A model generated the notes under the pieces. It had not been told where the DNA came from. It saw nothing but the letters and a program-made list of their open reading frames with translations, and did no database searches. Positions 72 through 63,561 of a stretch of DNA of 64,000 nucleotides are shown here, in pieces (position 1 is the first letter of the stretch; every line of letters starts with the position of its first letter). The position numbers and the translations under genes were made by a program. Source of the stretch: Phycisphaerae bacterium (GTDB lineage Bacteria > Planctomycetota > Phycisphaerae > UBA1845 > Fen-1342); contig CAXXWX010000026.1 of assembly GCA_963675745.2 (NCBI GenBank), positions 1 to 64,000 on the forward strand. Reading direction: 5' to 3'.

Positions 72-3000
72 ATGACGGAGGGCACGTCCATGTACACATC
101 TCGGAACACGGCAGCCTATGCGGTGGTCTTGGTCGCCGGCGTGCTCATACTCGCGCCATTTGCAGGGATTCTCGCCAAGGCCCCGCCCGCGACCCAGCCA
201 AATTCCGACGCCGCTGTTCATGAACCGAAGGACACCAATCCCCAATCGCCGGGGAGCCGAGCCGAGCCGCCCCGGCCAGTGCTCACCGGCGAGGTCGCCG
301 AAAAGGTGGCGGAGTTGGAGAAGCAGATCGACGAACTCCACGAGCAGGACAAGTACGCCGAGGCGATCCCGCTGGCGGAGGAGGCGCTCGCGATCCGGCG
401 AGAGCACCAAGCTGGCTGGACCAACGCCCATGGCGACCCGGCGGAGTGGTACGAGATAGAAGATGCGCGCCGAACGGTCGAGGACCTGCGCCAACGTGTT
501 TCGCTTTCGCCTGAGGAGCGCGCCGAGTTGGTGGAAGCCCGCGAGACCGATTCGAAGAGCTTGGGTCTTTATGCTCAGGGGCGATATGCCGAAGTGTTGG
601 AGCTGACACAGAAGACATTGGAGATCCGCCGTCGCACGCTGCGCGACGACCACCCGGACACGCTGATCCCGATCTACAACATGGGCACGCTGCTCCAAGC
701 CCAGGGCAAGCTGGCCGAGGCCGAGATATACCACCGCGAGGCGCTAGAGGGTCTCCGGCGCGTGCTGGGCGATGACCACCCGGTCACGCTGGGCTCGATC
801 AACAACATGGGCGCCCTGCTCGAGTCCCAGGGCAAGCTGGCCGAGGCCGAGACGTACCACCGCGAGGCGCTGGAGGGCAAGCGCCGCGTGTTGGGTAACA
901 ACCACCCGGATACACTCGGCTCGATCGGCAACATGGGCCACCTGCTCCAATCCCAGGGCAGGCTGGCCGAGGCCGAGACGTACCACCGCGAGGCGCTGGA
1001 GGGCAAGCGCCGCGTGCTGAGCGACGACCACCCGTCCGCGCTGATCTCGATCAACAACATGGGCGCCCTGCTCGAGTCCCAGGGCAAGCTGGCCGAGGCG
1101 GAGGCGTACTACCGCGACGCGCTGGAGGGTCTCCGCCGTGTGCTGGGCGACGAGCACCCGGACACGCTAGCTTCGATCAGCAACATGGGGGGCCTGCTGC
1201 TAGCCCAGGGCAAGCTGGCCGAGGCGGAAGGCTACTTCCGCGAGGCGCTGGAGGGGCGCCGGCGCGTGCTGGGCGATGACCACCCGGTCACGCTGGGCTC
1301 GATCAACAACATGGGCGCCCTGCTCGAGTCCCAGGGCAAGCTGGCCGAGGCCGAGACGTACCACCGCGAGGCGCTGGAGGGCAAGCGCCGCGTACTGGGC
1401 GACGACCACCCGGACACGCTGAGCTCGATTGCAGCCATGGGCAACCTGCTCTATTCGCAGGGCAATCTGGCCGAGGCGGAGGGCTACTACCGCGAGGCAC
1501 TGGAAGGCCAGCGTCGCATGCTGGGCGACGACCATCCGGACCTACTGAGATCGCTCAACAACCTCGGCTCCCTGCTCCAGCATCGTGGAAGGCTGGCCGA
1601 GGCCGAGCCGTACCTCCGGGAAGCGCTCGAAGGACACTGCAGCGTGCTGGGCATCGACGACCGGAGCACGCTGTTTGTGATCATGAACATGGGCCACCTG
1701 CTTAACGCGCAGGGCAAGCCGGCTGAGGCCGAGCCGTACTGCCGCGAGGCGCTCGACGTGGCCGAGAGACTGCGGACCCGGATCATTGGCGCAGAACGCG
1801 GGCGTGCCGTGTATGCCGAGCAACTCCGGCTGTCAGTCATCGCGGCCCGGTTGGCGGCGCTGCTGATCCAGACGAGTCAGCCGGCCGAAGCCTGGAGCGC
1901 GTCTGAACGGGGCCGCGGCCGGGCCTTGCTGGATCTGCTGGACCGCAGCGATCTGGATCTGCTGGCGGCGGCACGAGTCCGCGCTGCGGGCGACCCTGCG
2001 GCGGTGGCCGCGCTCGACAACGCGCTGAAGCGAGAGCAACAGGCGCAAGTCGATCTGACCACGGCGGAGGCCCTGTTGGTGGGCACACAGAAGCAGCGCC
2101 AGCACACCGAGGGGCGCGACGACCTGGCCGACAAAGAGAAGGCCCAGCGCCTTGCAGCGCTCGATGAGCAGATCGTCGAGCAGCACGCCACCGTCAAATC
2201 CAAACGCCGGGCGCTGGGCGAAGCCACCGCCAATGTGTTTGTCAACATGCGCGGTCTGTTTCCAGACGCCAAGCCAATGTCGATCGAGAAAATCCGCGCA
2301 GGACTGGAGCCGGGCGAACTGGTGCTGGGATGCACCTGGACCGGCGAGTTTGTGTTGCTGCTCGTTACGCAGGGCGCGGCGGCGGGTGAGGATGCGACGA
2401 GCGAGGGCGAGGGCGTTGCCGGGTTCACATTAGTAAAGGGCACGGAAGAGGTTGAGGAACTGACCAAGCTCGCTCAAGAAGTCCGTGAAGCGCTGGCCAG
2501 CCGACCCGCTGGCTCAGCGAACACGGTGGATCGAGACCGCTGTGCGGTGGCGCTCTCCGACAAACTCATTCCGGAGTCCGTCCGGGCACAGGTCGCAACC
2601 GCCGATCCACCTGATCGTCCTTCCTGACGGCCCCCGTTGCATGGCCTGCCATTTGACGTCCTGGCCGCGGCGCAGCGAAGGCGAGCGCTGGATCGAATCC
2701 GGCCCCGATATCGTCTACTCCGCTTCCGCCACAATGTATCTGAACCGGCGGGAAGCCGCACGTCAACAGACGCGCGACAGCACGCTATCGGCGGTGGTGC
2801 TGGGCGACCCGATTTTCGCGCGCAACGCGGCCCCCGAGCCGGACTAATCCCCAGCAAGGTGTGTTGGTGCGCGGCGTGGTCGATGAGTCGAATGCCGCAA
2901 AGGCGGGACTGCAACGCGGCGACGTTTTGCTTAGCTATGCGGGAACGCAGGCCAAGGATTTCGATGTGCTGGTCACCACACTGGGCGAGGTCAGTGAAGC

Positions 3001-3967
3001 AGTCGCAGCGGGCCAACGCGACGCGGACACGCCGGTTCCGGTTACTTACTGGCGCGATGGCCGGACAGAGGAAGCCAAGCTGCCGCCCGGCAAGATGGGA
3101 GTGCAACTGGATCGCGGTGCCCCAGACTCCGGCCTGCGCCTCATGGCGATGCGTTCCCGCGGCCACGATCAGGCAGTGGCCGAGATCAGCGCGACCGATC
3201 AGGTGCGTCTGCACGGCGGCGCGTTGCAGCCCTTGCTTGGTACCGAGCGCGAGGCGCTGGCGATCACGACACTGATCGAAGGCACGAATGGCTCGGCTAC
3301 GATCTTGCTCCAGGAGGACGCGACGGTCGGTCAACTTGAGGCCGCGGCTAATGGTAAGCGGATCCTGCACCTCGCCACGCATGGCCTGACCGGCTCGAGC
3401 GAACGCCCCTACGACGCCAGCCTGGCGCTCACCCAGCCCGACACGCCGACGCGGGACGACATCGGCTTCCTGACGCTGGACCGCCTGATCGCCAGATGGC
3501 GTGGCAAACTCAGCGAGTGCGAGCTGGTCGTACTGTCTGCGTGTGACACGCAGCGCGGCGTCAAGGTCGGCGACAGTGTGATGGCGTTACCGTGGGGCTT
3601 CTTCTACGCCGGGGCACCGACTGTCGTGGCCAGCCTGTGGAAAGTGGATGACACAGCAACGGCGCTGCTGATGACGCGGTTCTATGAGAACTTGCTGGGG
3701 AGCTACGACAAGCCGCGCGAAATCGGCGGGCGGACCTTCGCAGCTGGCAGTGAGATTCCCAAGGCTGCAGCGCTGCGTGAAGCTAAGCAGTGGCTGCGTT
3801 CGCTGACGGCTGACGAGGCTTACGAGCTGGCCAGGCAACTGCCAGACGATGCGACACGCGGCTCGATCCGCCAGCGGCAAACGCGGGTCAGTTCGCCGGA
3901 GACCGTCCATCCCTACGAACACCCGTACTACTGGGCGGCCTTCATTCTGATCGGCGACCCGGGATAG
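72..3967 (+). CDS. Secreted/membrane-anchored TPR-(PDZ)-CHAT caspase-like protease, copy 1 (split by several indels at about 2530-2850)
   Basis: N-terminal hydrophobic segment (likely start ATG 90 after GGAGG); nine 42-aa kinesin-light-chain-like TPRs; SERGRGRALLDLL linker; PDZ-like segment; CHAT dyad HLATHG and LSACDT; C-terminal HPYYWAAFILIG. ORFs 72..2627 and 2861..3967 join when aligned with the paralog at 59147. Confidence 0.9.
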
Positions 3968-6937: not shown

Positions 6938-7420
6938 GCCACCCGCCTTTCCGGTCGCCGTGCGGAACAAGAATGCCAGCACCACGGCGGCTCGTCGCCC
7001 GTGAATATTCTGCGCACCCATCGCGATTCTCCTATTGTTGCTGAACGCGTACATTCGCGCCACGTGTGATGGCCAACCCATGGAGGCCACCAGAACGTCC
7101 CGGCGTATACCGCGCCCCTTACGGCCACGCTAGACCGGGGCACCATTGCGAACAGAAGGCACGCGGCCGGCGGGCGATGAGTGGCTATCTCAGCGGCGTG
7201 CTTGCATAGGTAGTCGCCAGGTGGCAGTGGTGCGCAACGCGCAATTGACAAAGTGTTGGCATCTGGTCGTTGCCCGATGCGGATTGCCGTGCTCGATGCG
7301 TTGCGCACCACGCTAAGCCGCGACTAGAACTTGCAGAGCCGATTGATTTAGATCGACGGCCCACATCCCGGGCCGACCTTGCTTCCCCTGGTGCCGGTAT
7401 CGGTTACAATAGCCGTCACT

Positions 7421-8074
7421 ATGCAAGGGGTGGCTGGGCTCACTGACGATACCGTTCGCGCAGCGGCCGAGGGGTCGCGGGAGGATCTCTCTCGGCTCCT
7501 GGAAGCGCTGCAAACGCAGGTACGACTGATGGTCGCAGCCCGACTCAGCCCCACACCCGCGCAGTTACACGCCGTCGATGACACGGCCCAGCTCGTGATG
7601 ACGGCGCTCTCCGAGGGCATCGCTCGCCTGGAGCGTCGAACCGTCGCCGGGCTGAGGGCCTATGCCTCCGGCATCGTCGCGCGCAAGGTTGCTGATCTTC
7701 TGCGCGGCCGCGGCGAAGGAGGGAAGCAGCACCCGCTGGCCCGTTCGCTGGACTCCACCGTGACCGCCTTTTCACATGCCGGCGGGTTGTGGCAATTGCT
7801 CTCGGCGTCGGACACCACGCCCCGGAGCGCGGCCGACCGAGCCGAGCAGGTTGCGATCCTCCTGAGAGAGCTGGGGCAGCTCAAGGCGGAATATCGCCAA
7901 ATCATCACGCTGGCGTTCTTCGACCAGTTGCCGATGGCCGAGATCGCCGAGCAACTCGACAAATCGCGGCCAGCCGCGTCGATGCTCCTGATTCGCGCCG
8001 TGCGTGCGTTGCGACGAAACATGATCGGCACCTCAACGATCGGGCACCGCGATGGCCAAGCCCCCGGAACATGA
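7421..8074 (+). CDS. ECF sigma-70 factor (kinase-associated)
   Basis: Region 2 (VDDTAQLV...LRAYASGIVARKVADLLR) and region 4 (YRQIITLAFFDQLPMAEIAEQL...LLIRAVRALR); overlaps the start of the downstream kinase. Confidence 0.85.
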   Translation: MQGVAGLTDDTVRAAAEGSREDLSRLLEALQTQVRLMVAARLSPTPAQLHAVDDTAQLVMTALSEGIARLERRTVAGLRAYASGIVARKVADLLRGRGEGGKQHPLARSLDSTVTAFSHAGGLWQLLSASDTTPRSAADRAEQVAILLRELGQLKAEYRQIITLAFFDQLPMAEIAEQLDKSRPAASMLLIRAVRALRRNMIGTSTIGHRDGQAPGT

Positions 8075-11000
8075 TCCCTCCGAAGAAGCATACGCCGACA
8101 AGGTGGAGGAGGCCCTCAAGGCGTTCTGGGGCGGCAACAGCATCCCGCTCGAGGAGCTACTGGTGGACTCGGATGACGCGACCGTACCACCTGTCGCCAA
8201 GTTGCTCGGCGGTGTCGTCGGCCAGCGCAATGATCCCTCTGCCAAGACGCGCCGGCCGACACAAATCGGCGACTACCGCATCATCCGCGAGTTGGGTCGG
8301 GGCGGCATGGGGGTGGTCTACGAGGCCGAGCAACAGAGCCCGCGCCGACCGGTGGCGCTCAAGGTCGTGCGTGGCGGTGCGTACGTTGACGAGCACCACG
8401 TACGCCTCTTCCAGCGTGAGGCTCAAGCCTTGGCCCGGCTCAAACACCCGTTCATCGGCGGAATCTACGAGGCCGGCCGAACCGACGATGGGCAGCACTT
8501 CTTCGCGATGGAACTGGTCCGCGGCGTGCCGCTGCTGAAGTACGTCAGCGTGAAAAAGCCGCCAATCCGCGAGCGCCTGGCCCTGTTCTGCAAGATCTGT
8601 GAGGCCATCAACTACGCTCACCAGCGCGGCGTCATGCATCGCGACCTCAAGCCGGGCAACATCCTGATCGACGCCGACGGTAACCCGAAGATCCTCGACT
8701 TTGGTCTGGCGAAGATCACCGACGCGGACATCGCTGTAACGACGGTGGTGACGGAGATCGGCAAGATCCAGGGCACGCTGCCGTACATGAGCCCGGAGCA
8801 AGCTCGCGGCAACCCGGACGAGATCGACCTGCGCAGCGACGTTTACTCCCTCGGCGTAATCCTCTACGAGCTGATGACCGACCAGCGGCCGTACGAACTC
8901 GGCCAGGCGATGCTGCACGAGGCCGTCCGCGTGATCTGCGAAGCGCCGCCGCGCAAGCCGAGCACGATTATCCGCCAGCTTCGCGGCGACCTGGAGACTA
9001 TCGCGCTAAAGGCCCTGGAAAAGGAACCGCGTCGCCGCTACCAGAGCGCGACCGCATTCGCGGAGGACATTGAGCGTTATCTAACCGACCAACCAATCCA
9101 GGCCCGTCCACCGAGAGCGCTGTACCAATTCCGCAAACTGGTGGCCCGGCACAAGGCCGCATTTGCGTTCGTGGGTGTGCTGTTCGTTGTGGCCGTTGGA
9201 TCTGGCGCTCTGATGTCCATCCAGGCGGAGCGCAATCGCCAATTGGCGGAGAGCGAGCGGCGCGCGAAGGAGGACGCCCTTGCGGCGCGGGACCGGGCCC
9301 GCGAAGCGCAGGCCGAAACCCAAAAACGCGCTGACGAGCTGAGGATCGTCACCGAGTTCCAGGAATCCATGCTCGGCGAGATCGACGCGCGGCAACTTGG
9401 GCGGGCTCTGTTCGACGACTTGCGCGCCCAGGTACGCGAGTCGTTGGAAGCAGAGGGCATATCGCCTGCGGAGATTGACTCTGTGATCGATGGTCTCAAT
9501 TACACGCTACACCGCGCGAACGCCACAGACATCGCCGTGAGCTTTGTGGACGAGCAGTTGCTCGGTAGAGCAGCGAGGGCGATCGAGACGGACTTCGCCG
9601 ATCAGACCCTGGTCCGCGCGGCACTCCAGCAAACCGTGGCGACCACATACTGCAAGATAGGCCGGTACCTACTGGCGACACCCTTGCAGGAAGCCGCGTT
9701 GGACACCCGCCGGGCTGAGCTTGGCGTGGACCACCCGGACACGCTGGCCTCGATCGACAACATGGGCTACGTGCTGTATTTACAGAGTAAGCTGGTCGAA
9801 AGCGAGCCGTATTTCCGCCAGGCGCTGGAGGGTCGCCGCCGTGTGCTCGGCGACGACCACCCAGACACGTTGAGGTCGATAGGCCACATGGCCTGGCTAC
9901 TCGAGTCCCAGCGCAAGCCAGCCGAAGCCGAAGGATTCTGTCGTGAGGCATTAGACGGCCGCCGCCGCGTGCTGGGCGACGATCATCCGAACACGCTGAC
10001 CTCCATAAACGACATGGGCGCCCTGCTCCAGGCCCAGGGCAAACTGGCCGAGGCCGAACCGTACTACCGCGAATCGCTGGAGGGCCACCGCCGGGTGCTG
10101 GGCGAAGATCACCCGGACACGCTGGCCTCGATCCACAACATGGGCGGTCTGCTCCGTGCGCCAAGGCAAGCTGGCTGAGGCCGAGTCGTACTACTGCGAG
10201 GCGCTTGAGGGTTGCCGTCGCGCGCTCGGCAACGATCACCCTGATACGCTGACGTCGATCCGCGCTGTAGGCGGTCTGCTCGTGTACCAGGGCAAGCTGG
10301 CCGAGGCTGTGTCGTACCACCGCGAGGCGCTTGAGGGCTGCCGTCGCGTGCTCGGTAACGATCATCCAGATACGCTGAAGTCGATCGACAACATGGGCGG
10401 CCTGTTCCGGAGGATGGGCAAGCTCGAACAGGCTCTTGGCTATCGCCGCGAGGCGCTTGAGGGCTGCCGTCGCGTGCTCGGTAACGATCATCCAGATACG
10501 CTGAAGTCGATCGACAACATGGGCGGCCTGTTCCGGAGGATGGGCAAGCTCGAACAGGCTCTTGGCTATCGCCGCGAGGCGCTTGAGGGCCGCCGCCGCG
10601 TGCTGGGCGACGACCACCCGGATACGCTCGCCTCCATGCGTAACTTGGCGTTATTGCTGGAGGAGCAAGGTCTGCTGGCTGAGGCCGAAGCACTGTACCG
10701 CGAGGTCGTGGCTGGCCGTCGCCGGGTGCTGGGCGACAAGGATCCGGAGACGGCGAGTTCGCTCATACAATTGGGGGTGAATCTCGTCGCACAGGAGAGG
10801 TCTGCCGAGGCGGAACCCGTGCTGCGAGAGTGCTTGAAGTTGCGGCAGGACATACTGGAAGAGGGCCACTGGCTGACCTTCTCCGCGAAGAGTGTACTCG
10901 GAGAGGCCCTGGTCGGGCGAGGCGCGTTTACGGAGGCCCGGCCGCTGCTCGTGGGTGGACTAGCTGGCCTCCAAGAGAAATCGGAGGATATCCCGGACCG

Positions 11001-11263
11001 CTTCCGCACGGCACGCCTCCGCGAGGCCCACGAGCGCATCGTCCAGCTCTTCGATACCTGGCACGCCCGCCGAGCCGGAAAAGGGCTACGACCAGAAGGC
11101 CGCCGAGTGGCGGGCGAAACTGGAGGCGGTCAAACAGTCAGACACGGATGATGTTGAGAGCCCGGATTCGGTGGCCAACGGTGCTGCTTCGCAACCCGGC
11201 CCCAGTCAAGGCGAGGAGGTGCCGAACCCCGGACGGCAAGGAGCCGGCGAGAAGAGCCCGTAA
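8052..11263 (+). CDS. Membrane Ser/Thr kinase with C-terminal TPR array (indels at about 10160 and 11067)
   Basis: GRGGMG, VALK, HRDLKPGN, DFG and YMSPEQ motifs; TM helix; about 10 42-aa TPRs. Correcting the frame gives tail EPEKGYDQKAAEWRAKL...SP* ending at 11263, homologous to the tail of the 28072 kinase. Confidence 0.85.
10321..10590 (+). repeat. Exact 126-bp tandem duplication of one TPR unit
   Basis: 10321-10446 equals 10447-10572, plus a partial third unit. Confidence 0.9.
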
Positions 11264-11265
11264 CG

Positions 11266-13132
11266 ATGCAGACCTCCGCCAGAACATGAAGGTTCCGAGC
11301 AATACGCCGACCAGGTCGAGCATGCCCTGGAGGCGTTCTGGCGCGGCGACTCGTCGGAGCTCGAGAATCTGGTGGCTTCGGATGACATGACCGGCCCCGG
11401 CGTCGGTGAGTTGCTGGCTGGCGTCGTCAGCCCCGATACGGCGCCCACTGTCACCATAGCCAGCGAATCCGCCGCTCCGGGATACAAGATCATCCGCGAG
11501 ATCGGCCGCGGCGGGATGGGCGTGGTTTACGAAGCCCAGCAGCAGGACCCGCAGCGGCACGTCGCCCTCAAGCTCCTTGGCCAGAAGGTCTCCGGCGACG
11601 AGTATCGCAGCAAGCTGTTTCGCCGGGAGATTAACACGCTGGCCCGGCTGAATCACCCGGCCATCGCCACGATCTACGAAACCGGCCAAACCGAGGATGG
11701 GCAACCGTTCTTCACCATGGAGCTCGTTGATGGCGTTCCGCTGACGCGATACGTCCGCGAGAACCACGTTCCTATCAAACGCCGGCTCGAGTTGTTCGCG
11801 CGGATCTGTGACGCCGTCCACTATGCTCATGAGCACGAGGTGATCCATCGGGATCTCAAGCCGTCGAACATACTCATCGACGCCGATGGCAATCCGAAGA
11901 TCCTGGACTTCGGTCTGGCGCGCATCACCGATGTGGACCTGACACAGACGACGCTCGACGCCGAGACTGGGCGCATCATGGGCACGCCGACGTACATGAG
12001 CCCCGAGCAAGCCCGCGGCGAGCCGGACCGGATCGACGCCCGCAGCGACGTGTACTCACTAGGCGTGATGCTCTACGAGCTGTTGACTGACAAATTGCCG
12101 TATGTCCTGAGCCGGGCACTTTCGCACGAGGTAGCCCGCGTGATCTGTGAGCAGCCACCGCGAAAGCCAAGCACCATCAGCCGGGTTCTGCGGGGCGACG
12201 CCGAGACGATCGTGCTGACGGCGTTGGCGAAGGAGCCCGCCAGACGTTACCAGAGCGCCGGGGCGCTGGCGGCTGACATCCGACGTTACCTGGATGGCGA
12301 GCCGATCGAAGCGAGGCGTGACAGTTCATGGTACGTGCTGTGCAAGCGTCTGCGCCAGCACCAGCTCGTGGTGTTGGCCGGAACGCTAAGCGTGCTGGTC
12401 CTCGCCACTGCCGCTATCTTCAGCGCTGATGCGTGGCGGTCGTACCGCGACAGCTCAGTGAGCACCGAGCGCGCCTATCGCATCTGGCGCGCTTGGCACG
12501 ACGCGCCCACCATCACATCCTCAGATTTGAAGATCAGTCTATACCGCGAGTATTCCATCGATGACTTTCGTGCCTTGGGTACTATTGGCGAAGACTCAAC
12601 CGATGCGTTGTTCGACGACGATGTACGCATTAACGTCAAGCTGCCGCGGCCAGCGTACTGCTATCTCCTCGCCTTCAATCCCAATGGCGCCCTGCAGCGC
12701 TGCTACCCTGAGGATGAGCGCACACCGCCGGCACTGCTCGATGAGCTCATCTACCCGGCCGGGGAGAGAGACTACTTCGGTCTGAACGACGGTGTCGGCC
12801 TCCAGGCGTTCGTTCTGATCGTGTCGCACAAGCCGCTGCCGCCTTATGACGAGTGGATATTGCGAGTCGGCGCTCTGCCATGGCAGGCCGTGCATGCCAA
12901 GGGCGTCTGGCGTTTCGATGGTAAGCGCTTCAGTATGGCCCCATCCGCTCGGGGCACGATCCGCGAACGGGCCGCGCCGCCAAAGCTGTTTGCGGATGTC
13001 TGCCGACAATTGCAGGCCACCCCCAACGTCGACACGATCCAGGCCATCGCGTTTCCAGTCCTGCCGACGGAGACGACCGGTCCCGGGGCTGAGGGAACAG
13101 GAGACGAGACCGAAGGGCAGCCGACGCCGTAA
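11266..13132 (+). CDS. Membrane Ser/Thr kinase with C-terminal DUF4384-like domain (indel just after the ATG)
   Basis: Full kinase motifs; TM helix; DUF4384-like VRINVKLPRPAYCYLLAFNPNG...CYP...GLQAFVLIVSHKPLP. In-frame sequence upstream of 11372 (PPEHEGSEQYADQVEHALEAFWRG) matches the N-terminus of the 8052 kinase; ATG 11266 lies 2 nt after the previous stop. Confidence 0.85.
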
Positions 13133-13168
13133 GGATCGCCTATGGCAAAGGCGCGCTCCCGTGGCGTG

Positions 13169-13465
13169 CTATCGGCCACGAAACTCCACCGGCGCGGCGC
13201 CCTGGCTGGCATCGGAGTGGTGGTTGGCGCCCTGCTGCTGAGAACGCGGCGGCGAGTCGACGGAGCTGGCGTCGCGCGTGTTTGTCCCCGATTGCTGGTG
13301 GAAAACGGCCAACCGCTCCCGCTGAACCGGACAAGCAACCTGGTCCTTTTCCGAGCCCGAGCCGCTCAAAGGCGGCAACAGGATGCAGAGCTGGACCGCA
13401 ACGGTGACGAGGACGCTCAGCAGTTGAACGAGTGTGTAATCAACATTACGTTCGCAGAATCGCAT
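13169..13465 (-). pseudogene. Degenerate prepilin/DUF1559-type N-terminal fragment
   Basis: YTLVQLLSVLVTVAVQLCILLPPLS...VACPVQRERLA aligns without gaps to [25 protein letters not shown]...[11 protein letters not shown] of the 43325 protein. Confidence 0.5.
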
Positions 13466-13728
13466 GGTCATCTCCCGATGTGCCGCCAGCACTGTGAGCC
13501 GGGCGGCAGTGGCCCTTTATATACGCCAGTCGCAATTCCCACCGCGAGCGCAACACGCAATCCACGGTCAGACTCCGCGCTGCCGGCAGGGCATCCCGAG
13601 TGCATGCATCATGCGGTTCGTCGGCTTCCGGGTCCGGCGATTCTGTCGCCTTGCTACGGAGCTGCCGCGCGGTAGAATCTCACTTGTCACTTCAGATTGG
13701 GCTTGGGGCAAGAAAGGGGGCGCATATC

Positions 13729-16700
13729 ATGTGCCGCACACCACGCCATTGGGCAATTGTCGCTGGAATGCTCGCCGCCGTGCTGTTGACTTTGCCAGCG
13801 CTGGGGGACATGCCGGAGACGCAGCCGGCTGAAGAGCGGTTCATGAGCGACGAGGAGTTCCTGAAGATCGGGGAGGAGTTCGACCTCGACGCGTTCATCG
13901 CCGAGCTGGATCCGCCGACGGTGGAAGAGATCATCGCCAGCCGCGAGCCGATCCCGTCGGTCGAGCAGATCCTCGATGACCTCGAGCACCCGGAACGCCG
14001 ACCGAAGCTGCCAACGCTGCCGGAGGATGTAGCCCAGCAGATTGAGCAACTGAACAGGCGGATTGACGAGTTGATGCGGAAGGGGGTCATGGGCGGCGAT
14101 GCACAGTTGAAGGAGCAGACGCTGGATGAAGCAACCCCGCATGGCCGAGCAGGAGGTCGAGCTGCGCACCCAGGCCGGCCAGGCGCAGGACTGGCATGAA
14201 GTGGTCGATGCCCAGCTGCGCGCGACGTCCCTGAAGTACCTGCGCGAGCTGCCGATGAGCAGCCGCCGTAAGCTGTCCAGCGCTGACGTACGCGCGATTG
14301 ACCTTCACAGGCTCTTCGAGCAAGGGCCAGTACGACGGTGCGCTCGCCATCGGGCGTAGCCAGTTGGCGATCCGTCAGCGGCTCTTCCCCGGTGACCATC
14401 CGGACGTGGCGACGAGTATGAACAATGTAGCGGTCATTCTCAAAACCCGTGGGTCGCTGGACGAGGCCGAGTTGCTGATCCGCGAGGCGCTAGCGATGCG
14501 CCAGCGGCTCTTCCCCGGCGACCATCCGGCCGTGGCGACGAGCCTGGGCAACCTAGCGAGCCCTCTCCAAGCCCGCGGGGCGATGGCCGAGGCCGAGCCG
14601 CTCTGCCGCGACGCGCTGACGATGAACCAGCGGTTGTTTTCCGGCGACGATCCCGACGTGGCGACCAGCCTGAACGACCTCGCACACTGCCTGGGGCACC
14701 GCGGGGCGCTGCCGGAGTCTGAGGCGCTCTTCCGCGACGCGCTGGCCATGAAGCAGCGGCTATTCCCCGGGGACCATCCGGACGTGGCGGCCGGCCTGAG
14801 CAACCTCGCAGCCGTCCTCGAGACCAGTGGGGCACTGGCCGAGGCTGAACCACTCTACCGCGACGCACTGGCGATGTGGCAACGGCTCTTCCCTGGCGAC
14901 CATCCGAACGTGGGGATTGGCATGAACAACTTGGCGGCCATTCTTCGGGCGCGCGGGGCGCTGGCCGAGGCCGAGCCGCTCTGCCGCGACGCGCTAATGA
15001 TGTTGCGGCGGTGTCTCCCCCGCGACCATCCGAACGTGGCAGCAGGCCTGACGCAACCTGGCACGAGTTTTTGAGGCGCGCGGGGCGTTGGCTGAAGCCG
15101 AGGCATCTTACCGCGACGCGCTGGCCATGAAGCAGCGGCTATTCCCCGGGGACCATCCGGGCGTGGCACTGGGCATGAACAACCTCGCGGGTGTCCTCTG
15201 GGCCCGTGGAGCGCCTGCCGAGGCCGAGCTGCTCTTTCGCGATGGCTTGACGATGGTTCAGCGAGTGTTCCCGGGCGACCACGCGTACGTGGCGGTGAGC
15301 CTGAACAACCTGGCGCTAATCCTGAGGGCCCGCGGGGCACTTGCCGAGGCCGAGCCGCTCTGCCGCGACGCGCTAACGATCTTGCGGGCGGTGTTTCCCC
15401 GCCGATGAACCGCGCGTGGCGGCGGGCCTTAACAACTTGGCGCACATTCTCCAGGACCGCGGCGCGCTGGCCGAAGCGGAGCTGTTATTCCGCGACGCGT
15501 TCGACATGAGCGAACGGCTGCGCACGCAGATCATCGGCGGCGAGCAGGAACGAGCCGCCTTCGCGGGCGTGCTCGATCTCAGTGCCCGTGCCCACGCGTA
15601 CACGAACGTACTTGCCCAACTCCATCGTGAGGCCGAGGTGCTGAAGGTCCTGGAGCGTGGGCGGGCGCGGGCGGCCCTGGACCTGCTCGAACGCTCCGGG
15701 CGCGACTTGGTAGCCGAAACTGAGGCACTCGGGGATGCGGAGCGCTCGCGGCGCCTCGCCGAGGCCGAGGCTGCTGAGGAGCAGGCCCGCATCGATCTGA
15801 CCTCGACCGAGGCGCTGCTGGCCAGCCGGCGCAAGGAACGCGACACGCTGGAGCGCCGCGAGAACCTCGACGCTCAAACCAAAGCCCGCCAGCTCGCCGA
15901 GTATGACCAGCAGATCGCTGGGCTGCTCGAAGACGTGAAGCGCAAACGCCAGGAACTTACGCAGGCCGGCATCGCTGTGCTGACCGAACTGCGGGACCTG
16001 TTTCCTGTTGCCCAGGCGTTGACCACAGACGAGATTCTCCGTGGGCTTTCGCCAGACGAGGCCGTCGTCAGCTTCAGTTGGGGCGGCGACAGCATACTAG
16101 TGGCCAGTGCTACGGGGGACACAACCGGTGCGGTGATCGTGGCAAGCGACAAGGACGCGGTCAAACAACTTAGCGAGCTCGCCGGTGAGGTCCGCGAGGC
16201 GATCGCGATTCGATCGAGCGCAGCGAGCGCGCTGGATCCGGCGAAGACGCGCGAGCTGGCCGCGGCGTTGTTCCCGGAGCCGGTGTGCGCGGCAGTCAGC
16301 GGCGTTCGGCGGCTGGTCATTCTGCCAGACGGTCCATTGAACGACATCCCAATCGAGATGCTCACCGAATCCGTGCCGGCGCTGGCGGACAAGACCATCG
16401 TCTACGCGCCTTCGGCGACGGTGTACGTCAACCGAAAGACCACGCGGCCACAAGTTGCCAAGGCAACAGACTCAAGGCCGGCCGATCGCGCTGCTGCTCG
16501 GCGACCCGGTCTTTGAGCGGGGGTATCAGGAGCCGGACTATCCCGAACAAGGCGTGCCTGGTGGTCGCCGCGCCCGAGGGCGGCAACGCTGCCAAGGTCG
16601 GGTTGCGGCGGGGCGACGTGCTGCTGCGCTATGACGATCGGGAGCTGGATGGACAGGCCGCGCTGGTTGAGGCACTCGGCTCCGTCAATGAAGCCATCGC

Positions 16701-17695
16701 GAAGGGCGAGCGTCCGGCGGATGAAGCGGTCAAGATCGCCTACTGGCGCGACGGTCAGGAAGCGGAAGTCGAACTGCCGCCGGGCCGGAATGGGCGTGCA
16801 GATTCAGCCGGGCAACCCCGCCGAGATCCTCCGCTCGATGACCCGGCTCGAGCGTGGCTTCGACGCGATGGCGGCCGAGGCCAACGCGCTCGACCAGGTG
16901 CGCCTCTTCGGCGGCTCGCTGGTGCCTCTGCCGGGTACACGTCGCGAAGCCGAGGCGATCGCGGCGCTGTTCGCGCAGGCAGCCGCGCGGCAGGCGCATG
17001 ATGCCACGTTCACGTCGCCAGCGGCCTGTCTGCTGCTGGATGAGCAGGCCACCATCGCCAACCTGAGCGAACGTGTCGCCGGCGTGCGCTACCTGCACCT
17101 GGCCACGCACGGGCTGATGGGCAGTGCCGAGCGCCCCTACGATGCCAGCCTGGCGCTGACGCAGCCGGAGACGCCGACGGCGGGTGACATTGGCTTCCTG
17201 CGGCTACAGGATCTGATATCCAGGTGGACCGGCCGGCTCGACAACTGTGAGCTGGTGGTGCTGAGCGCCTGCGACACGCAGCGCGGCATCCGCCGGGGCG
17301 ACAGCGTGATGTCGCTGCCGCTGGGGTTTTTCTTCGCCGGAGCGCGGACGGTGGTGGCGAGCCTGTGGAAGGTGGACGACACGGCGACGGCTGTGTTGAT
17401 GACGCGGTTCTACGAGAACCTGCTGGGCGAGTTCGACGAGGCGCGCGACATCGCGGGTCGTACCTACGCTGCCGGTCAACCGATGCCGAAGGCCGCGGCG
17501 CTGCGAGAGGCCAAGCTGTGGCTGCGCTCCTCGACGAACGACGAGATCACCGAGTTGGTGTCCCAGCTACCAGCCAGCGACGACCGCGGCACGGTCCGTG
17601 AGCGCCCGCCCGTGAGCGAATCGGCGGCAGGCGCTCATCCCTACGAGCACCCGTACTATTGGGCGGCGTTCATCCTGATCGGTGACCCGGGTTGA
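13729..17695 (+). CDS. Secreted TPR-(PDZ)-CHAT protease, copy 2 (split into at least 6 ORF pieces by indels)
   Basis: Signal peptide MCRTPRHWAIVAGMLAAVLLTLPALG after AAAGGGGG; about 9 LFPGDHPDVA-type TPRs; LERGRARAALDLL; PDZ-like AAKVGLRRGDVLLRYD; HLATHG, LSACDT, HPYYWAAFILIGDPG. Confidence 0.85.
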
Positions 17696-18051
17696 TGCGG
17701 TCCCGCGCGCTGACGCAGGTCAGAAGACTGTGTCCAGACATCCTGACCAGCGAAGAAGAAACGCTGCTTTTGTAGGTGTTTCTCGGGCCGTTGCAGCCTT
17801 CGGGCACGGTCATAGAACACGACAAATCTGACGGAACGAGATACGTGCCAGCCTGTGTGCGGGGCTGTGATTCGCGGGTGTTTGCTGGGCGCGCTGCTTT
17901 CCGATTCAGCTCCACGATGGTCATAACCGACTACGGGAATGTCAGGATGTCTGGTGTCAGCGAGTAGCGTGGAGTGGCCGCGGACAGTCGCTCCGGCCGT
18001 GACGCCCAATCCGAAGCCACGTGGCCCGACGACCACCCCACGGGGGTCTCC

Positions 18052-18915: not shown

Positions 18916-19754
18916 TGGAACCTCCAATCTGACCATCGAGTCATCTGGTATTCAGTTTGCATCCAACCACTAAAGTGGCGCCATCATCGCCGGTGAATGG
19001 CCAGGTAACCGTCCAGCAACGCCGTAGTCCTACCCACGTTGGACCGTTCATGGAGTCCTTTGAATCCTCCTTTCTGCGGGTTTTACGGCTCTCTACTCCA
19101 CCGTTCCGGCAAGGCGAACCACTGTGCCACACAGCATGCACCGGCTGGCCCCGGACTTGCCCGGCGGTCAGGGTCCCGCTGTTCCTCCGGCATCAACAGG
19201 CCAGAGGCGCGTCCGGGGTGATTAAACAAGAACCGCACAGTTTTCGATCGACGGACGCTGACCTGTAGCACGTACGTATCTGACACACCGTGCCATTTCA
19301 GCAACAGGGGCCAGCAAGCAGCTGCAATGATGGTCACGTCGCCCAGCCATTGAATGGGTGCGGATCCGACATCACGTTCGCAGGAGCCCATGGTCGCCTC
19401 CCAATCACGCTGCTGGCACCGCTATGGTGCGCGGAAGTCATTCGTCATGTGCACTAGTCGTGGCTTCTACAAGAGCGCAACGCACAATCCGCCGCGATAT
19501 CTTGCGTTGCCACCAGTCATTAGACGTCTGCCGACACGGAGCTGAGCCGTCCGATCGGCCACGCAAGAACCGCTGGTCCATCGCATGGCGGCGTATTCCC
19601 TAACACATCCAGCGGTCGAGTTCGACCGATTTGATTGCTGGTGGCGCGGAGCCCTGATTTCCCTCTTCTCACCGCGGCGGCAGATCTGATAAGCTTGAAA
19701 GCTGGGTCAGTCGTCCGTGGTGACCTTGGGCCCTTGTGGGCCAGGAGGTGCAGC

Positions 19755-20910
19755 ATGGCGACTGAAAAGGTCGGTGTGTATCGCAAGTACCACGGAGCGA
19801 TTCCCATCGACAAGTCTGGCAGGCCGTTGCCCAAGAGTGCATGGCCGCGGGAGCGACCATTCCGGTGGGCAGCGAGGTGGTACGGTTTGGATGGCAAACG
19901 GTTTAGCAAGAGCTTCGAAAACAGAAAGGAGGCAGACCGGTTCGCCGAGAGGAAACAGGTGGAAGTACGAGTGGGAAAGGGCGATCAGCCGCGCGCGACC
20001 ACGCTTGAGGAGTTTTCCAGGATGTATCTCGACCTACGCGGTGATCTCGCTCCGACGACCAGGATCGAGCAGGGACGCACTTTGCGGTTTCTGAGGGAGT
20101 TCTTCGGTCACACGACGATCGTCAGAAAGGTCACATCCCTGGACGCGCGACGCTTCGTGGCGTGGTATCGTGAGCGGACGCATCGCGGTCGAACGCCGGC
20201 GCCCGCGACTGTGAATAAGGCCGTCCGCGAGTGCAAACGGATCTTTCGCGAGGGCCGTCGAGTGCTCACTGATCCGCGAGAATCCGTTCGATGGGATTCG
20301 CCAGGAGAAGGTCGGGCAGCGGGCGTGGCACCACATCAGCCCAGCGGAGTGCCGAGAACTGATCGAGGTATCGCCGTCGCTTCGTTGGCGAGGCATGATC
20401 ATGCTCGGCTACTGTTGCGGGCTGCGACTGGGTGAGGTGATCAACCTGACCTGGTCGGATGTGGACTTCGGGAAGCATCGTTTGCGGGTTGTTCGCAAGA
20501 CTGCGTCGAAGCACCAGGCCGCCTGGACGCCGAAGGACAAGGACATGAGAACTGTTCCGTTGCCTGAAGCGGCGGTCAGTGTCCTGGCAGAACTGCAACT
20601 CTCTGCCTCCGACGGGCATGAGTACGTGTTCGTCATCTCGAGAGGTCCCACGGCAGGTGAGCATCTGAAGCAGTCGAATCTCTGGCGTGACTTCCAGGTA
20701 ATCCGCAAAAAGGCTGGTCTTCCGAAGTGCTCGTTCCACGACCTTCGGAAAAGCTACTGCACGAATCTCGCGGACGCTGTCCCGTTACACGTCGTGCAGG
20801 AGTTGGCTGGGCATGCGGACATCCGCACAACGCGCAAGCACTATTTACAGATTCGCGACGAGCAGATTGATGCCGCCCGTTGCGCACTCGAAGAGGTGAT
20901 GCGATCGTGA
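19755..20910 (+). CDS. Tyrosine recombinase/integrase (frameshift at about 20250)
   Basis: N-terminal arm-binding-like WAARWYGLDGKRFSKSF; SAM-like middle; catalytic GLRLGE, K, FHDLRKS, LAGH, HY; AGGAGG RBS. Confidence 0.9.
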
Positions 20911-20923
20911 GTCTGGCCGGGAG

Positions 20924-20945
20924 TGACCCAGTTCTTGACCCACTC
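20924..20945 (+). promoter_or_regulatory. Putative integrase arm-type sites TGACCCA-N5-TGACCCACTC (left)
   Basis: Directly after the integrase stop; same motif and spacing as 55984-56005. Confidence 0.65.
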
Positions 20946-21066
20946 GTCCGGGAACAACGTTCGTTTACGTGTTCTCGGACCGATAGAAGTACAGGCATGG
21001 GGATGCAATTCCATGCCATGGAGTGACTTGCAATCCCGACTGCGTAATCGGGGCCAACCACACCAC

Positions 21067-21085
21067 TGCCAGCTCACACAGCTGG
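21067..21085 (+). mobile_element. att-like core site TGCCAGCTCACACAGCTGG (copy 1)
   Basis: Exact 19-bp direct repeat of 55843-55861; internal inverted repeat CCAGCT-cacac-AGCTGG; about 160 bp from the integrase stop. Confidence 0.7.
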
Positions 21086-21108
21086 ACGTCATTGGCCGGC
21101 CTGCTTGG

Positions 21109-21402
21109 CTACATTGCTACCCGGCTTCCACACGCCGGGCAGTATCGAGCACCTGGGCGGACGCTCGCCTCACACACCGAGCACACATATCCCCGCGGCA
21201 AGACGCGAACGCGCCATCGAGACGGCAACAGAATGAGTAGCGCCACGATGACGGTGAGCGCCGTACCGGTCAGATACTCGGCGCGAATCGCCTTGGCCAG
21301 TGGAATGACGCCAATGCGGCAAAGGCATTCGGTGATGACCGGCAGGCCGGCCACAAACAGGATGCCGATCACTAGCGCAATGACAATGAGCTTACGAAAC
21401 AT
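21109..21402 (-). CDS. Small membrane protein with C-terminal zinc ribbon
   Basis: Two hydrophobic segments; CSVC...YCPACG. Confidence 0.75.
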   Translation of the reverse strand: MFRKLIVIALVIGILFVAGLPVITECLCRIGVIPLAKAIRAEYLTGTALTVIVALLILLPSRWRVRVLPRGYVCSVCEASVRPGARYCPACGSRVAM

Positions 21403-22037: not shown

Positions 22038-22077
22038 AGTCAATCTCCATTGATGGACGTTCGGGAAGGCGGCCCGC

Positions 22078-59075: not shown

Positions 59076-59352
59076 GCGTGGACGCTGTGCCGCTGCTCCC
59101 GCGCACGGTACAATCGTGACCTGCACCTTACTGATCCCAAGGTCGCATGACGGAGGGCACGTCCATGTACACATCTCGGAACACGGCAGCCTATGCGGTG
59201 GTCTTGGTCGCCGGCGTGCTCATACTCGCGCCATTTGCAGGGATTCTCGCCAAGGCCCCGCCCGCGACCCAGCCAAATTCCGACGCCGCTGTTCATGAAC
59301 CGAAGGACACCAATCCCCAATCGCCGGGGAGCCGAGCCGAGCCGCCCCGGCC
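59076..59352. repeat. Identical copy of window positions 1-277
   Basis: Offset 59075; covers the upstream region and N-terminus of the TPR-CHAT gene. Confidence 0.9.
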
Positions 59353-62300
59353 GTTGCTCACCGGCGAAGTTGCCGAGAAGGTGGCCGCGCTGGAGAAGCA
59401 GATCGAGGAGCTGCGCGAGCAGGATAAGTACGCCGAGGCGATCCCGCTGGCGGAGGAGGCGCTTGCGATCCGCCAAGAGCACCAGACGGGCTGGACCGAC
59501 GCCAACCGAGAGCCCGCCGAATGGTACGAAATCGGCGACGCGCGGCGGGTGGTCAAGGACCTACGGCTCCGCAGTTCGCTAACGCCCGAGCAGCAGGCCG
59601 AGTTAGACCAGGCGGCCGCGCGGGAGTCTCAGGTGCTCGAGTTATACCAGCAGGGCAAGTATGCACGGGCGGCGAACCTATGCAGACAAATCCTACGCAC
59701 CCGCCGCCGCGTGCTGGGCGACGACCATCCGGACACGCTGATCTCGATGACCAACATGGGCGCCCTGCTGAAATCCCATGGCAAGCTGGCCAGGGCCGAG
59801 CCGTATTGCCGCGAGGCGCTGGAGGGCTTCCGCCGCGTACTGGGCAGTGACCATCCAGACACGTTGGGCGCGATTGGCCACATGAGCACGCTGCTCTATT
59901 CCCAGGGCAAGCTGGCCGAAGCGGAGGCCTGCTGCCACGAGGCGCTGGAGAACAGCCGCCGCGTTCTGGGCGACGATCACCCGGACACGCTGCAATTGAC
60001 CATCGGTATGTGCGGCCTGCTCCGTTCCCAGGGCGAGCTGGCCGAGGTAGAGGCGTATCAGCGCGCACTGCTGGCGGGTAGGCGCCGCGTCCTGGGCGAT
60101 GACCACCCACTCACGCTTGTCTCGATCGACAATATGGCCGGCGACCTCCGGGCCCGGGGCAAGTGGGCCGAGGCGGAAACCTACCGCCGCGAGGCGCTGG
60201 AGCGTCAGCGCCGTGTGCTGGGCGACGACCACCAATACACGCTGAGCTCGATTGGCAGCATGGGCTACCTACTATGGAAACAGAATAGGCTGACCGAGGC
60301 CGAGCCGTACTGCCGCGAGGCGCTGGAGCGCAGGCGCCGTGTACTGGGCGACCACCACCCGCAGACGCTGAAATCAACCGGCCAAATGGGTAATCTCCTT
60401 TTCTCGCAAGGCAAGCTCGCCGAGGCCGAGCCACTCTGCCGCGAGGCGCTCGAGGGTCTCCGGCGCGTGCTGGGAGACGAACACTCGAACACGCTGAGTG
60501 CGATCGCCAACCTGGGCCAGTTGCTCCAATCCCAGGGCAGATTATCTGATGCCATGCCATATTGCCGCGAGGCGCTCAGAATCCGCCGGCGCGTGCTGGG
60601 CGATGACAACCCGGGCACGCTGAACTCGCTCAACAACATGGGCGTGCTTCTCGCGTCAATGGGAAAGCTGGCTGAGGCCGAACCATATCTTCGTGAGGCG
60701 CTGGACGCCAGCCGGCGAGAGTTGGGCAACGAACACTCGGAGACGTTAGCCTTGGCCAACAACATGAGTATGCTGCTCCAAAACCAGGGCAAGCTGGAAG
60801 AGGCGGAAGCCTACCAACGCGAGGCGCTGGAGGGCTACCGCGCATTGAGCCACGACTCCCCGGATGCGCTGCGCTCGCTCCACAACATGGGCTACCTGCT
60901 TCATTCCCAGGGGAAGCTGGCCGAGGCGGAACTGCGCTGCCGCGAGGCGCTGGCGGGCTTCCGCCGCGTGCTGGGCGACGACCACCCGGACACTCTAGTC
61001 GCGACCGCCAATATGGGTGCCCTGCTTGAGTCCCAGGGCAAGCTGGCCGAGGCCGAGCCGTGCTGCCGCGAGGCGCTGGAGCGTCAGCGCCGTGTGCTGG
61101 GCGACGACCACCCAGTCACGCTGATCTCGCTCCACAACCTGGGGGGCATACTGCGAAGCCAAGGTAGACTCACCGAGGCGGAGAGCTACATGCGCGCGGC
61201 GCTGGATGGCCGTCGACACGTGCTCGGCAGCGAACACCCGGACACGCTGAATTCGATCAGCGACATGGGCTACCTGCTCCAGTCCCAGGGCCAATTGGCC
61301 GAGGCTGAGTCTTATTTGCACGAGGCGCTGGATGTGGCCGGGCGTTTGCGGACGCGAGTCATCGGTGAGGAGCGCAGCCGGGCCGCCTTTGCCAAGAAAC
61401 TAAAGCTATCGGTCATCGCGGCCCAACTCGTTTCACTGTTGATCGCCGTGGACCAGCCCGCAAGAGCCTGGAGCGTCTCCGAGCGGGGCCGCAGTAGGGC
61501 ATTGCTTGATCTGCTGAATCGTAGCGATCAGGATCTTCTCGAAGCGGCACGAGTCCGCGCCGCCGGCGACCCTGCGGCGGCGACCGCGCTCGACAGCGCG
61601 CTGAAGCGAGAGCAGCAGGCGCAAGTCGATCTGACCACGGCTGAGGCCTTGTTGGCGGGTACGCAGAAGCAGCGCCAGTGTACCGAACAACGCGACGACC
61701 TGGCCGAAGAAGAGAAGGCCCAGCGCCTGGCGGCGCTCGATGAGCAGATCGCCGCCCAGCACGCCGACGTCACGTTCAAACGCCGAGCGCTCGGGGAAGC
61801 CACCGCCAACGTGTTCGTCAACATGCGCGGCCTGTTCCCTGACGCTCGGCCAATGGGGATCGATGAGATTCGCGTGGGACTTCAGCCGGGCGAACTGGCA
61901 TTGGGATACACCTGGACCCGCGACATCGTGCTGCTGCTGGCGGCCCAAGGTACGCAGGCGGGTGGGGAAGCGATGGAGCGGCAGAGCGACGAAGGGACGA
62001 AGGAAGGCAAAGGGGTTGCCGGGTTCGCTTTGGCCGAGAGTAAGGATGAGGTTGAGGAACTGACCAAGCTCGCTCAAGAAGTCCGTGAAGCGCTGGCCAG
62101 ACGACCCGCTGGCTCAGCGAACACGGTGGATCAGACCGCTGTGCGGGCGCTCTCCGACAAACTCATTCCGGAGTCCGTCCGGGCACAGGTCGCAACCGCC
62201 GGCCACCTGATCGTCCTTCCTGACGGCCCCGTGCATGGCCTGCCATTTGACGTCCTGGCCGCGGCGCACGAAGGCGAGCGCTGGATCGAATCCGGCCCCG

Positions 62301-63561
62301 ATATCGTCTACTCCGCTTCCGCCACAATGTATCTGAACCGGCGGGAAGCCGCACGTCAACAGACGCGCGACAGCACGCTATCGGCGGTGGTGCTGGGCGA
62401 CCCGATTTTCGCGCGCAACGCGGCCCCCGAGCCGGACTATCCCCAGCAAGGTGTGTTGGTGCGCGGCGTGGTCGATGAGTCGAATGCCGCAAAGGCGGGA
62501 CTGCAACGCGGCGACGTTTTGCTCAGCTATGCGGGAACGCAGGCCAAGGATTTCGATGTGCTGGTCACCACACTGGGCGAAGTAAGCGAAGCGGTCAACG
62601 CAGGTCAACGCGACGCAAACACGCCGGTTCCGGTTACTTACTGGCGTGATGGCCGGACAGAGGAAGCCAAGCTGCCGCCCGGCAAAATGGGAGTGCAACT
62701 GGATCGCGGTGCCCCAGACTCCGGCCTGCGCCTCATGGCGATGCGTTCCCGCGGCCACGATCAGGCAGTGGCCGAGATCAGCGCGACCGATCAGGTGCGT
62801 CTGCACGGCGGCGCGTTGCAGCCCTTGCTTGGTACCGAGCGCGAGGCGCTGGCGATCACGAAACTGATCGAAGGCACGAATGGCTCGGCTACGATCTTGC
62901 TCCAGGAGGACGCGACGGTCGGTCAACTTGAGGCCGCGGCTAATGGTAAGCGGATCCTGCACCTCGCCACGCATGGCCTGACCGGCTCGAGCGAACGCCC
63001 CTACGACGCCAGCCTGGCGCTCACCCAGCCCGACACGCCGACGCGGGACGACATCGGCTTCCTGACGCTGGACCGCCTGATCGCCAGATGGCGTGGCAAA
63101 CTCAGCGAGTGCGAGCTGGTCGTACTGTCGGCGTGCGACACGCAGCGGGGTATCAAGGTCGGCGACAGCGTGATGGCACTGCCGTGGGGCTTCTTCTACG
63201 CCGGGGCACCGACTGTCGTAGCCAGCCTGTGGAAAGTGGATGACACGGCAACGGCGCTGTTGATGACACGCTTCTACGAGAATCTGCTGGGCCAGTTCGA
63301 CGACGCGCGCGAGGTCGGCGGTCGTAACTACGCGACCGGAAAACCGATGCCCAAAGCTGCGGCGTTGCGCGAGGCCAAGTGTTGGCTGCGTAACCTGACG
63401 ATGGACGAGGTCGATGGGCTCGTGGCCCAACTTCCGGCCGAGCGAGCCGCGCGGCACCATCCGCGAGCGCCCGCCCATAACCGAATCGGCGGTTGGTACT
63501 CACCCGTACGAGCATCCGTACTACATGGGCCGCATTCATCTTGATCGGCGACCCGGGCTGA
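59147..63561 (+). CDS. Secreted/membrane-anchored TPR-(PDZ)-CHAT protease, copy 3 (indels near 63445 and 63530)
   Basis: Same N-terminus as copy 1; 13 TPRs; PDZ insert; HLATHG and LSACDT; corrected end HPYEHPYY..AAFILIGDPG* at 63561. Confidence 0.92.

Follow-up and report, generated by a model that had tools for sequence, protein, structure and literature searches.

A short motif beginning with Arg-Gly is shared, in matched form, between the ectodomain of a planctomycete receptor kinase and the C-terminal loop of the CHAT protease encoded directly after it. We found that the motif is real and reproducible, that it has almost certainly been selected jointly in both partners, and that, judging by residue couplings in family alignments, its variable part is probably read by the DUF4384 domain of the kinase. 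A protease-activated receptor kinase, in which this domain would bind an N-terminus newly exposed by cleavage behind Arg, is an evenly balanced possibility. The locus represents a directly testable variant of bacterial caspase-like protease signaling.

Organization of the locus

The window comprises 64,000 nucleotides of a Phycisphaerae genome (contig CAXXWX010000026.1). The features relevant here are as follows.

72..3967, + strand: CHAT copy 1, a TPR-PDZ-CHAT protease with no adjacent DUF4384 kinase
7379..8074, + strand: ECF-type sigma factor (identity confirmed), the first gene of the module and its presumed output
8052..11151, + strand: second receptor kinase, with a transmembrane helix and a TPR ectodomain, placed between the sigma factor and the DUF4384 kinase; assembly frameshift at 10154
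11266..13132, + strand: receptor Ser/Thr kinase with a kinase domain, one transmembrane helix (12365-12427), and a C-terminal DUF4384-like domain
12527..13069, + strand: DUF4384-like ectodomain, an Ig-type beta-sandwich (model pLDDT 93.6)
12677..12811, + strand: cluster coupled to P1' (Asn 12677, Cys 12701, Phe 12776, and Phe 12809), a putative pocket; Tyr 12752 couples to P3'
12773..12781, + strand: Y-F-G strand of DUF4384 (profile positions 81-83), coupled to P6', P4', and P1'
12950..12970, + strand: RGTIRER in the DUF4384 loop of the kinase, modeled as coil (block pLDDT 67); predicted cut at R|G, with GTIRER as the predicted tethered ligand
13729..17695, + strand: CHAT copy 2, the cognate protease, with a signal-like N-terminus, a TPR array, and a CHAT domain with an inserted PDZ domain
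16853..16858, + strand: second R-G, in the linker from PDZ to protease of CHAT copy 2, common in the family
17585..17605, + strand: RGTVRER in the C-terminal loop of CHAT copy 2 (equivalent loop at pLDDT <50 in the relative L048)
59147..63560, + strand: CHAT copy 3, a paralogue of copy 1

The DUF4384 kinase is a Hanks-type receptor Ser/Thr kinase, as indicated by its Pkinase match (E = 4.7e-48), its single hydrophobic segment at 12365-12427, and its C-terminal ectodomain. Its listed ORF starts at 11372; the gene itself probably begins near 11266, ahead of the assembly frameshift that falls at 11273. The gene directly after it encodes the exported-type TPR-PDZ-CHAT protease (copy 2), whose ORF is also split by assembly frameshifts. 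The frameshifts within 8000-18000 look like assembly errors, as single extra bases (at 10154, 11273, 14135, 15053, 15386, 16476, and 16789) are absent from the contigs of one sample, which is probably the source sample and hence not an independent comparison.

All three CHAT copies match PF12770 at 160-167 bits against a cut-off of 24, and their catalytic residues are intact. His, Cys, and Asp are found at 3380, 3542, and 3650 in copy 1 (which has a frame break between 2627 and about 2800), at 17108, 17270, and 17378 in copy 2, and at 62972, 63134, and 63242 in copy 3 (whose loop is shifted to a different frame by a break near 63440). A model of the relative L048 has the caspase-like fold and matches DdvA, Csx29, and separase. 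All three CHATs carry a hydrophobic signal-like N-terminal segment, so that protease and DUF4384 domain would share a compartment. Copies 1 and 3 share 90.8% identity in the catalytic part; they (72-2627 and 59147-63544) have a near-identical N-terminus and catalytic part and differ in TPR number and in loop sequence (RGSIRQR versus RGTIRER), a pattern of recent duplication or recombination.

The window domain appears to be a divergent DUF4384 member. It scores 18.2 bits against a Pfam PF14326 cut-off of 27, with a paralogue in the same genome at 27.4; PF14326 is matched at E <= 0.01 by 46 of 55 family members (best E = 1.3e-9), and 26 of 30 Atlas matches are DUF4384 clusters. Foldseek with the DUF4384 model gave no match at E <= 0.001, and a sequence search for a related solved structure returned none. 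The best VIA hits (Z 6.8) are generic Ig-like folds, including alpha-2-macroglobulin domains, with no clear match; we did not adopt the latter as bait-region homology.

The motif co-varies between cognate partners

The initial annotation had noted four related peptides and proposed that they are a protease recognition site, used for autoprocessing or autoinhibition in the protease and as substrate, bait, or inhibitor in the kinase. The peptides are present, all on the + strand, as RGSIRQR (3857-3877), RGTIRER (12950-12970), RGTVRER (17585-17605), and RGTIRER (63450-63470). A six-frame search of the 5.2 Mb genome with the pattern RG[TS][IV]R[EQ]R, which was derived from those same four peptides, found no fifth match. 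Since the three window CHATs are paralogues, they count as roughly one observation, and the actual test against chance is co-variation across loci, which the motif passed.

A DUF4384 alignment search yielded 34 genome and 41 metagenome loci, every named one from Planctomycetota, and both loops are available for 42 loci when the window and three seed loci are counted. Across these, the DUF4384 motif co-varies with that of its own CHAT (0/5000 permutations), as the annotation had envisaged. With one scoring rule for all pairs, the five residues after R-G score 12.2 in cognate and 1.7 in non-cognate pairs (35 clusters); the scores are 10.7 versus 0.2 at 14 clusters (50% identity; 0/5000 permutations), and with 6 clusters the cognate score is reached in at most 17/5000 permutations. 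In the five multi-module genomes, the best-scoring CHAT is the own one for 10 of 11 DUF4384s. Seven near-duplicate loci were omitted from the own-CHAT and codon, the upstream-residue and tree, and the groove-rule analyses; two loci with truncated cores (L043 and L045) were left out of the trees and the groove-rule test and kept in the permutation scoring.

The co-variation is confined to the prime side, where identity at P3'-P6' is 42-55% in cognate pairs against 11-18%. The four residues upstream of Arg show no cognate co-variation (2856/5000 permutations), nor does the linker R-G of CHAT, used as a control, co-vary with DUF4384 (20 loci, 3854/5000). About ten different codes are matched, in classes that include T-I/V-R-E-R, E-M-x-H, K-T-R-R, V-R-P-L, I/V-V-R-R, E-P-R, and K-G-x-K-A.

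It is very improbable that chance, shared ancestry, or copying of DNA between neighboring genes produced this pattern. Identical codons are slightly more frequent than expected (75/162 versus 63.5, z 1.9), and the partial Mantel correlation that remains after removal of tree distances is small (r 0.16, 50/5000), both of which would fit such an origin. Against it, more than half of the shared residues use different codons, the flanking DNA differs, about ten codes are matched, the linker control lacks co-variation, and the principle recurs in another protease family (see below); copying at the DNA level was rejected on the codon usage and the differing flanks. When each pair is compared with its nearest relative, the cognate partner wins 22, loses 9, and ties 2 times on the CHAT tree, which includes frameshift-contaminated rows (L017 and L036 were flagged), and wins only 16, loses 11, and ties 6 times on the DUF tree.

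A second module of this genome (C26:137486-149917, L012), which is largely intact, encodes a sigma factor, a CHAT, a kinase-DUF4384, and another CHAT. Its code is RG-x-E-M/V-x-H, with RGIEMEH in the DUF4384 loop and RGTEMTH and RGTEVAH in the CHAT loops. The window module and module 2 are thus each matched internally, under separate codes. We also observed an orphan TPR-PDZ-CHAT with the module-2 code, RGAEVAH, at C19:144785-150680 (L013:6783-12680), in a neighborhood lacking any DUF4384 match; its kinase may be encoded elsewhere, as may that of window copies 1 and 3.

Among 55 DUF4384s, 5 lack R-G or R-S, and none of these has a CHAT in the DNA examined; three form one clade and two have <400 bases downstream. 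In two others (L014 and L061), R-G is retained although no CHAT was found, and the correlated loss is thus weak. In one clade (L038, L040, L044, and L046), R-G is replaced by RR-hydrophobic, apparently with no kinase or CHAT and in a housekeeping neighborhood.

The motif has the character of an arginine-specific cut site

In the 151 DUF4384 rows that span the loop, Arg is present in 148 and a small P1' residue (G, S, or A) in 148, followed by 139 different five-mers; the R-G conservation is inflated because the profile used to gather homologues contained R-G columns. Among the loops of 112 database CHATs, 91 have R-G, 10 have R-S or R-A, and 11 have neither. The His-Cys dyad is invariant in 33/33 CHATs, as is the Asp of a W-x-V-x-D motif at Cys+36. 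Separase uses an invariant Asp (Asp2070 of the human enzyme) to hold the P1 Arg (PMC10317155); this S1 Asp lies at Cys+41, and we tentatively equate it with the CHAT Asp at Cys+36 by spacing, not by direct alignment. A profile search from the CHAT family did not reach separase or align any separase sequence, and a PDB search with a single CHAT sequence gave no match. The CHAT Asp aligns with Ser in the Csx29 of Scalindua, an enzyme described as cleaving after Leu (PMC11106740). The motif thus looks like an Arg-specific cut site, and cleavage at R|G is probable.

Both models place the motif in low-confidence coil, in DUF4384 (where the loop model rested on a shallow alignment of 10) as well as in CHAT. 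The reading of the initial annotation holds in part. The Arg, the small P1' residue, and the invariant His, Cys, and Asp agree with a protease recognition site, while the data do not support the variable code as the recognition sequence of the protease. The premise of cutting after Arg proved not to be general for CHATs, since Craspases cut after L, M, or A (PMC11106740). The ExxR motif that separase reads is not found before the predicted cut, where residues are variable and unshared.

The linker R-G at 16853-16858 has a counterpart at 3158-3163, likewise between the PDZ domain and the active protease half, and these sites are candidate activation cuts.

The code is coupled to the core of the DUF4384 domain

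To compute couplings, we used mutual information and mean-field DCA on 184 DUF4384 sequences, and both rank motif-to-core pairs at the top. Redundancy filters at 80% had reduced the DUF4384 alignment from 221 to 184 rows and the CHAT alignment from 144 to 114; 11 CHATs without an R-G/S/A loop were omitted. The pair Y81-P6' (z 11.7) is first among all DUF4384 pairs, and Y74-P3' (z 9.0), G83-P4' (6.7), and D30-P4' (5.0) are also coupled. The P1' Gly couples to C57, F93, and F82 (z 5.6, 5.5, and 5.1) and to N49, residues that are also coupled to one another. Residues upstream of Arg reach at most z 3.1. The pairings are specific, as Tyr81 goes with Arg at P6' in 55/78 cases, Gly81 with Leu in 31/38, and Ser82 with Ser at P1' in 6/6. 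The couplings persist after removal of one distinct clade and keep z 8-11 when subsampled to 114 rows. The P1' cluster would form a pocket, and the register of 81 with P6' and 83 with P4' suggests an antiparallel strand pair; both are geometries deduced from the alignment.

The CHAT side behaves differently. Its catalytic half shows nothing above z 4.8 against its own loop, and P2'-P6' reach at most z 3.9 against the catalytic half, the PDZ region, and the helical region, while P1' couples to two CHAT positions (z 4.8 and 6.0). The PDZ domain was rejected as the reader of the code, since its couplings reach z 3.7 at most. More noise is present in the CHAT alignment (81 effective sequences, many perhaps without a DUF4384 partner), and the coupling test covered few of the TPR repeats.

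These results bear on the reading of the initial annotation, in which the subsites of the protease read the whole motif, with the CHAT loop serving for autoprocessing or as a pseudosubstrate and the loop of DUF4384 acting as substrate or bait. The conserved Arg and small P1' and the intact catalytic residues agree with it; in addition, separase has autocleavage sites and autoinhibitory loops (PMC10317155), and Craspase-Csx30 pairs are mutually specific (PMC11106740). For the R-G part, it can hold beside the explanation that we prefer. As an account of the code we consider it rather unlikely: only the residues after Arg co-vary, with none before Arg, where separase reads its motif; P2'-P6' couple to the tested CHAT regions at z <= 3.9, as against up to 12 in DUF4384; and the linker R-G is without the code. 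The claim that the protease reads the variable code is thus not supported in its original form.

Judged by the groove rules of the partner DUF4384, CHAT loops conform to about the same degree as the loop of that DUF4384 itself (33 loci, in which kin are not independent). Tree-aware pair tests of five groove rules point in the same direction with none significant (median p 0.125-0.5) and have low power; the traits change 14-34 times on the tree. Complex prediction for the CHAT of L048 (781 aa, 33 rows) with DUF4384 (55 rows) scored 0.00 twice, which is no answer and hence neutral.

The couplings within DUF4384 would also arise if the uncut loop merely folds onto the domain. This leads to an alternative by strand exchange, in which the intact DUF4384 loop is a loose edge strand displaced by the intact CHAT loop, with no free N-terminus; docking would then present the kinase Arg to the active site, or binding alone would signal. 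Such an exchange accounts for the same couplings and for the matching of partners, and we regard it as unlikely yet deserving of serious weight. It leaves unexplained that the coupled segment begins exactly at P1', that P1' is tied to a core cluster and the upstream residues to nothing, and that the Arg is kept in the protease copy (91 R-G plus 10 R-S or R-A of 112 CHATs), and it is also opposed by the model of the uncut loop, a low-confidence coil (from that same shallow alignment).

A proposed model for a protease-activated receptor kinase

The preferred reading, the protease-activated receptor kinase, builds on the shared co-varying motif, its coupling to the DUF4384 core, the intact catalytic residues, and a compatible topology, all of which are observed; cleavage, binding, the order of events, and the sign of the output are predictions. 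The exported TPR-PDZ-CHAT protease would cut after Arg, and a groove and pocket in the DUF4384 beta-sandwich would take a peptide beginning at the next residue, with Gly in the pocket and the following five residues along the Y-F-G strand, contacts suggested by co-variation. Once activated by a signal, the protease would cut its own C-terminal loop, exposing G-T-V-R-E-R, which would dock in the groove of the cognate kinase. The docked protease would then cut the kinase loop, and the new end of the kinase, G-T-I-R-E-R, would take the groove of the same molecule or a neighboring one, so that the protease is released and the kinase switched. The switched kinase would signal to the ECF sigma factor, and the five-residue code would keep parallel modules apart. 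Upstream sensing by the TPR or PDZ domains is a guess. On this model, the motif occurs in both proteins because one groove would receive it from either of them, as a docking tag from the protease and as a tethered ligand from the kinase.

Little is known so far of what exported bacterial caspase-like proteases cut and how they are activated, or of the inputs to the many receptor kinases of planctomycetes. The analysis supplies a predicted bond (R|G), a predicted six-residue ligand, a predicted binding surface, and predicted residue-level matching rules. If the tethered-ligand reading is true, it would be categorically new, would assign a function to DUF4384, would offer orthogonal protease-receptor pairs, and may be relevant to Csx30 proteins of the DUF4384 type in type III-E CRISPR systems.

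The shared motif follows DUF4384 beyond CHAT modules

DUF4384 is described in the literature, in the text available, as uncharacterised and often fused to proteases, and matches to it occur in 61 of 301 genomes of this phylum. Full-text literature on DUF4384, PF14326, and CHAT, with subscription journals thinly covered, contained no account of the motif, the groove, or a DUF4384 function. Of 28 distant PF14326 proteins, 20 carry an R-[GSAD]-hydrophobic motif after the domain (shuffled mean 10.3, 0/2000), the pattern having been chosen after inspection of the sequences and two proteins (L096 and L108) left out. Among C14 caspase-DUF4384 fusions, 8/12 have a motif 37-54 residues after the catalytic Cys that recurs after DUF4384 (e.g., RDIGVK twice or RDIVVA twice), and the repeated motif varies in matched fashion (15.1 versus 4.8, exact p 1e-4); the other 4/12 are without a shared motif. 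The linker loop after the Cys is the one that caspases process (PMC4357240). Because unrelated C14 fusions repeat the motif, the principle follows DUF4384 and not one protease family.

Other architectures were also observed. Single-chain kinase-DUF4384-TPR-CHAT fusions (L024, P0051, and P0070, with L030 grouped with them) retain both motif copies, and TIR domains are also fused to DUF4384 (P0003 and P0006). In L101, L102, L104, and L106, of which three are kinase fusions, an extra motif copy stands just before DUF4384 (e.g., RDLAVV before and RDIVVL after); L106 carries a tandem RNVTIRP.

These fusions are relevant to a further alternative, in which the same groove acts as a brake: DUF4384 would capture the self-cut protease by its new N-terminus, and cutting of the loop would toggle the brake off or on. 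Direct fusion of DUF4384 to C14 caspases and its place inside kinase-DUF4384-CHAT fusions speak for it, as does a known cleavable inhibitor, PCi, in the SAVED-CHAT/PCaspase operon. We hold it to be improbable, as DUF4384 in most loci is the sole ectodomain of a kinase, and sometimes of a TIR protein, which a sensor fits.

Returning to the tethered-ligand reading, a broader form of it, which we put forward tentatively and with somewhat more doubt than belief, is that DUF4384 is a general bacterial sensor of the new N-termini that caspase-like proteases with Arg/Lys specificity create. As a fusion partner of kinases, TIR domains, or the proteases themselves, it would couple proteolysis to signaling via a tethered ligand, with the ligand copy in the protease as an address label. 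Its counterparts would be the animal protease-activated receptors (PARs), in which cleavage after Arg uncovers a tethered ligand for the very receptor that carries it. PARs are GPCRs with no homology to the window system, and the PAR protease is without a ligand copy; the bacterial counterpart would have a readable, diversifying five-residue code.

Comparison with known systems

The type III-E Craspase (Csx29, Csx30, and RpoE) resembles the window system in its TPR-CHAT fold and in a dedicated cleaved partner tied to a sigma factor, and some Csx30 C-terminal domains are DUF4384 (bioRxiv 2022.08.17.504292). It differs in being cytoplasmic and RNA-triggered, with no kinase and, in the available text, no shared motif reported in the protease; it cuts at non-conserved sites (PMC11106740). 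No Cas model (Cas7-11, Csx30, or Csx31) was matched by PADLOC among the 18 window proteins scanned. DdvA-DdvS of Myxococcus xanthus likewise has a periplasmic TPR-CHAT tied to an ECF sigma factor, and autoproteolysis of DdvA has been proposed (PMC11506125). DdvA is the best fold match of the CHAT model (E = 3.5e-9); unlike in the window, the protease is fused to an anti-sigma factor, with no separate receptor kinase, DUF4384, or peptide code.

In Haliangium ochraceum, a SAVED-CHAT/PCaspase/PCi/PCk/PCc-sigma system similarly combines clan CD proteases with a Ser/Thr kinase, a sigma factor, and a cleavable regulator; in contrast to the window, it is nucleotide-triggered, its PCi is described as CI-2-like and not DUF4384, and its kinase is uncharacterised in the text available (bioRxiv 2023.06.23.546230). 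Separase (C50) with securin shares the TPR-like and caspase-like fold and, tentatively, the P1 Arg held by an invariant Asp, and its autocleavage leaves the fragments attached (PMC10317155); it reads ExxR before Arg, whereas the window code lies after Arg and is coupled to the partner. Finally, the kinase-activated ECF groups (ECF43, 59, 61, 62, and 217) also have sigma genes beside kinase genes in Planctomycetota, and their activation by Ser/Thr kinases is predicted, with the inputs of the planctomycete groups not described in the available part of that source (PMC8999054).

Further observations in the window and genome

Both window kinases (7379-13132) open with a similar short segment, YAD-x-VE-x-AL-x-AFW-x-G, also found in the relative L048, which is possibly a sigma-binding or dimerization helix. 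More than 50 kinase-domain matches to the window kinase occur across this genome, and just two bear this DUF4384 domain. The region 19635-25187 holds an integrase-like gene together with an AAA ATPase, which matches IetA/CDC48 weakly, and its partner gene; on C19, the CHAT is likewise flanked by such an ATPase pair, which hints at a mobile element. Two large exported repeat proteins (34387-41202 and 45954-50954) have near-identical C-terminal halves ending in a dockerin-like tail, and each lies near an ECF sigma or kinase gene.
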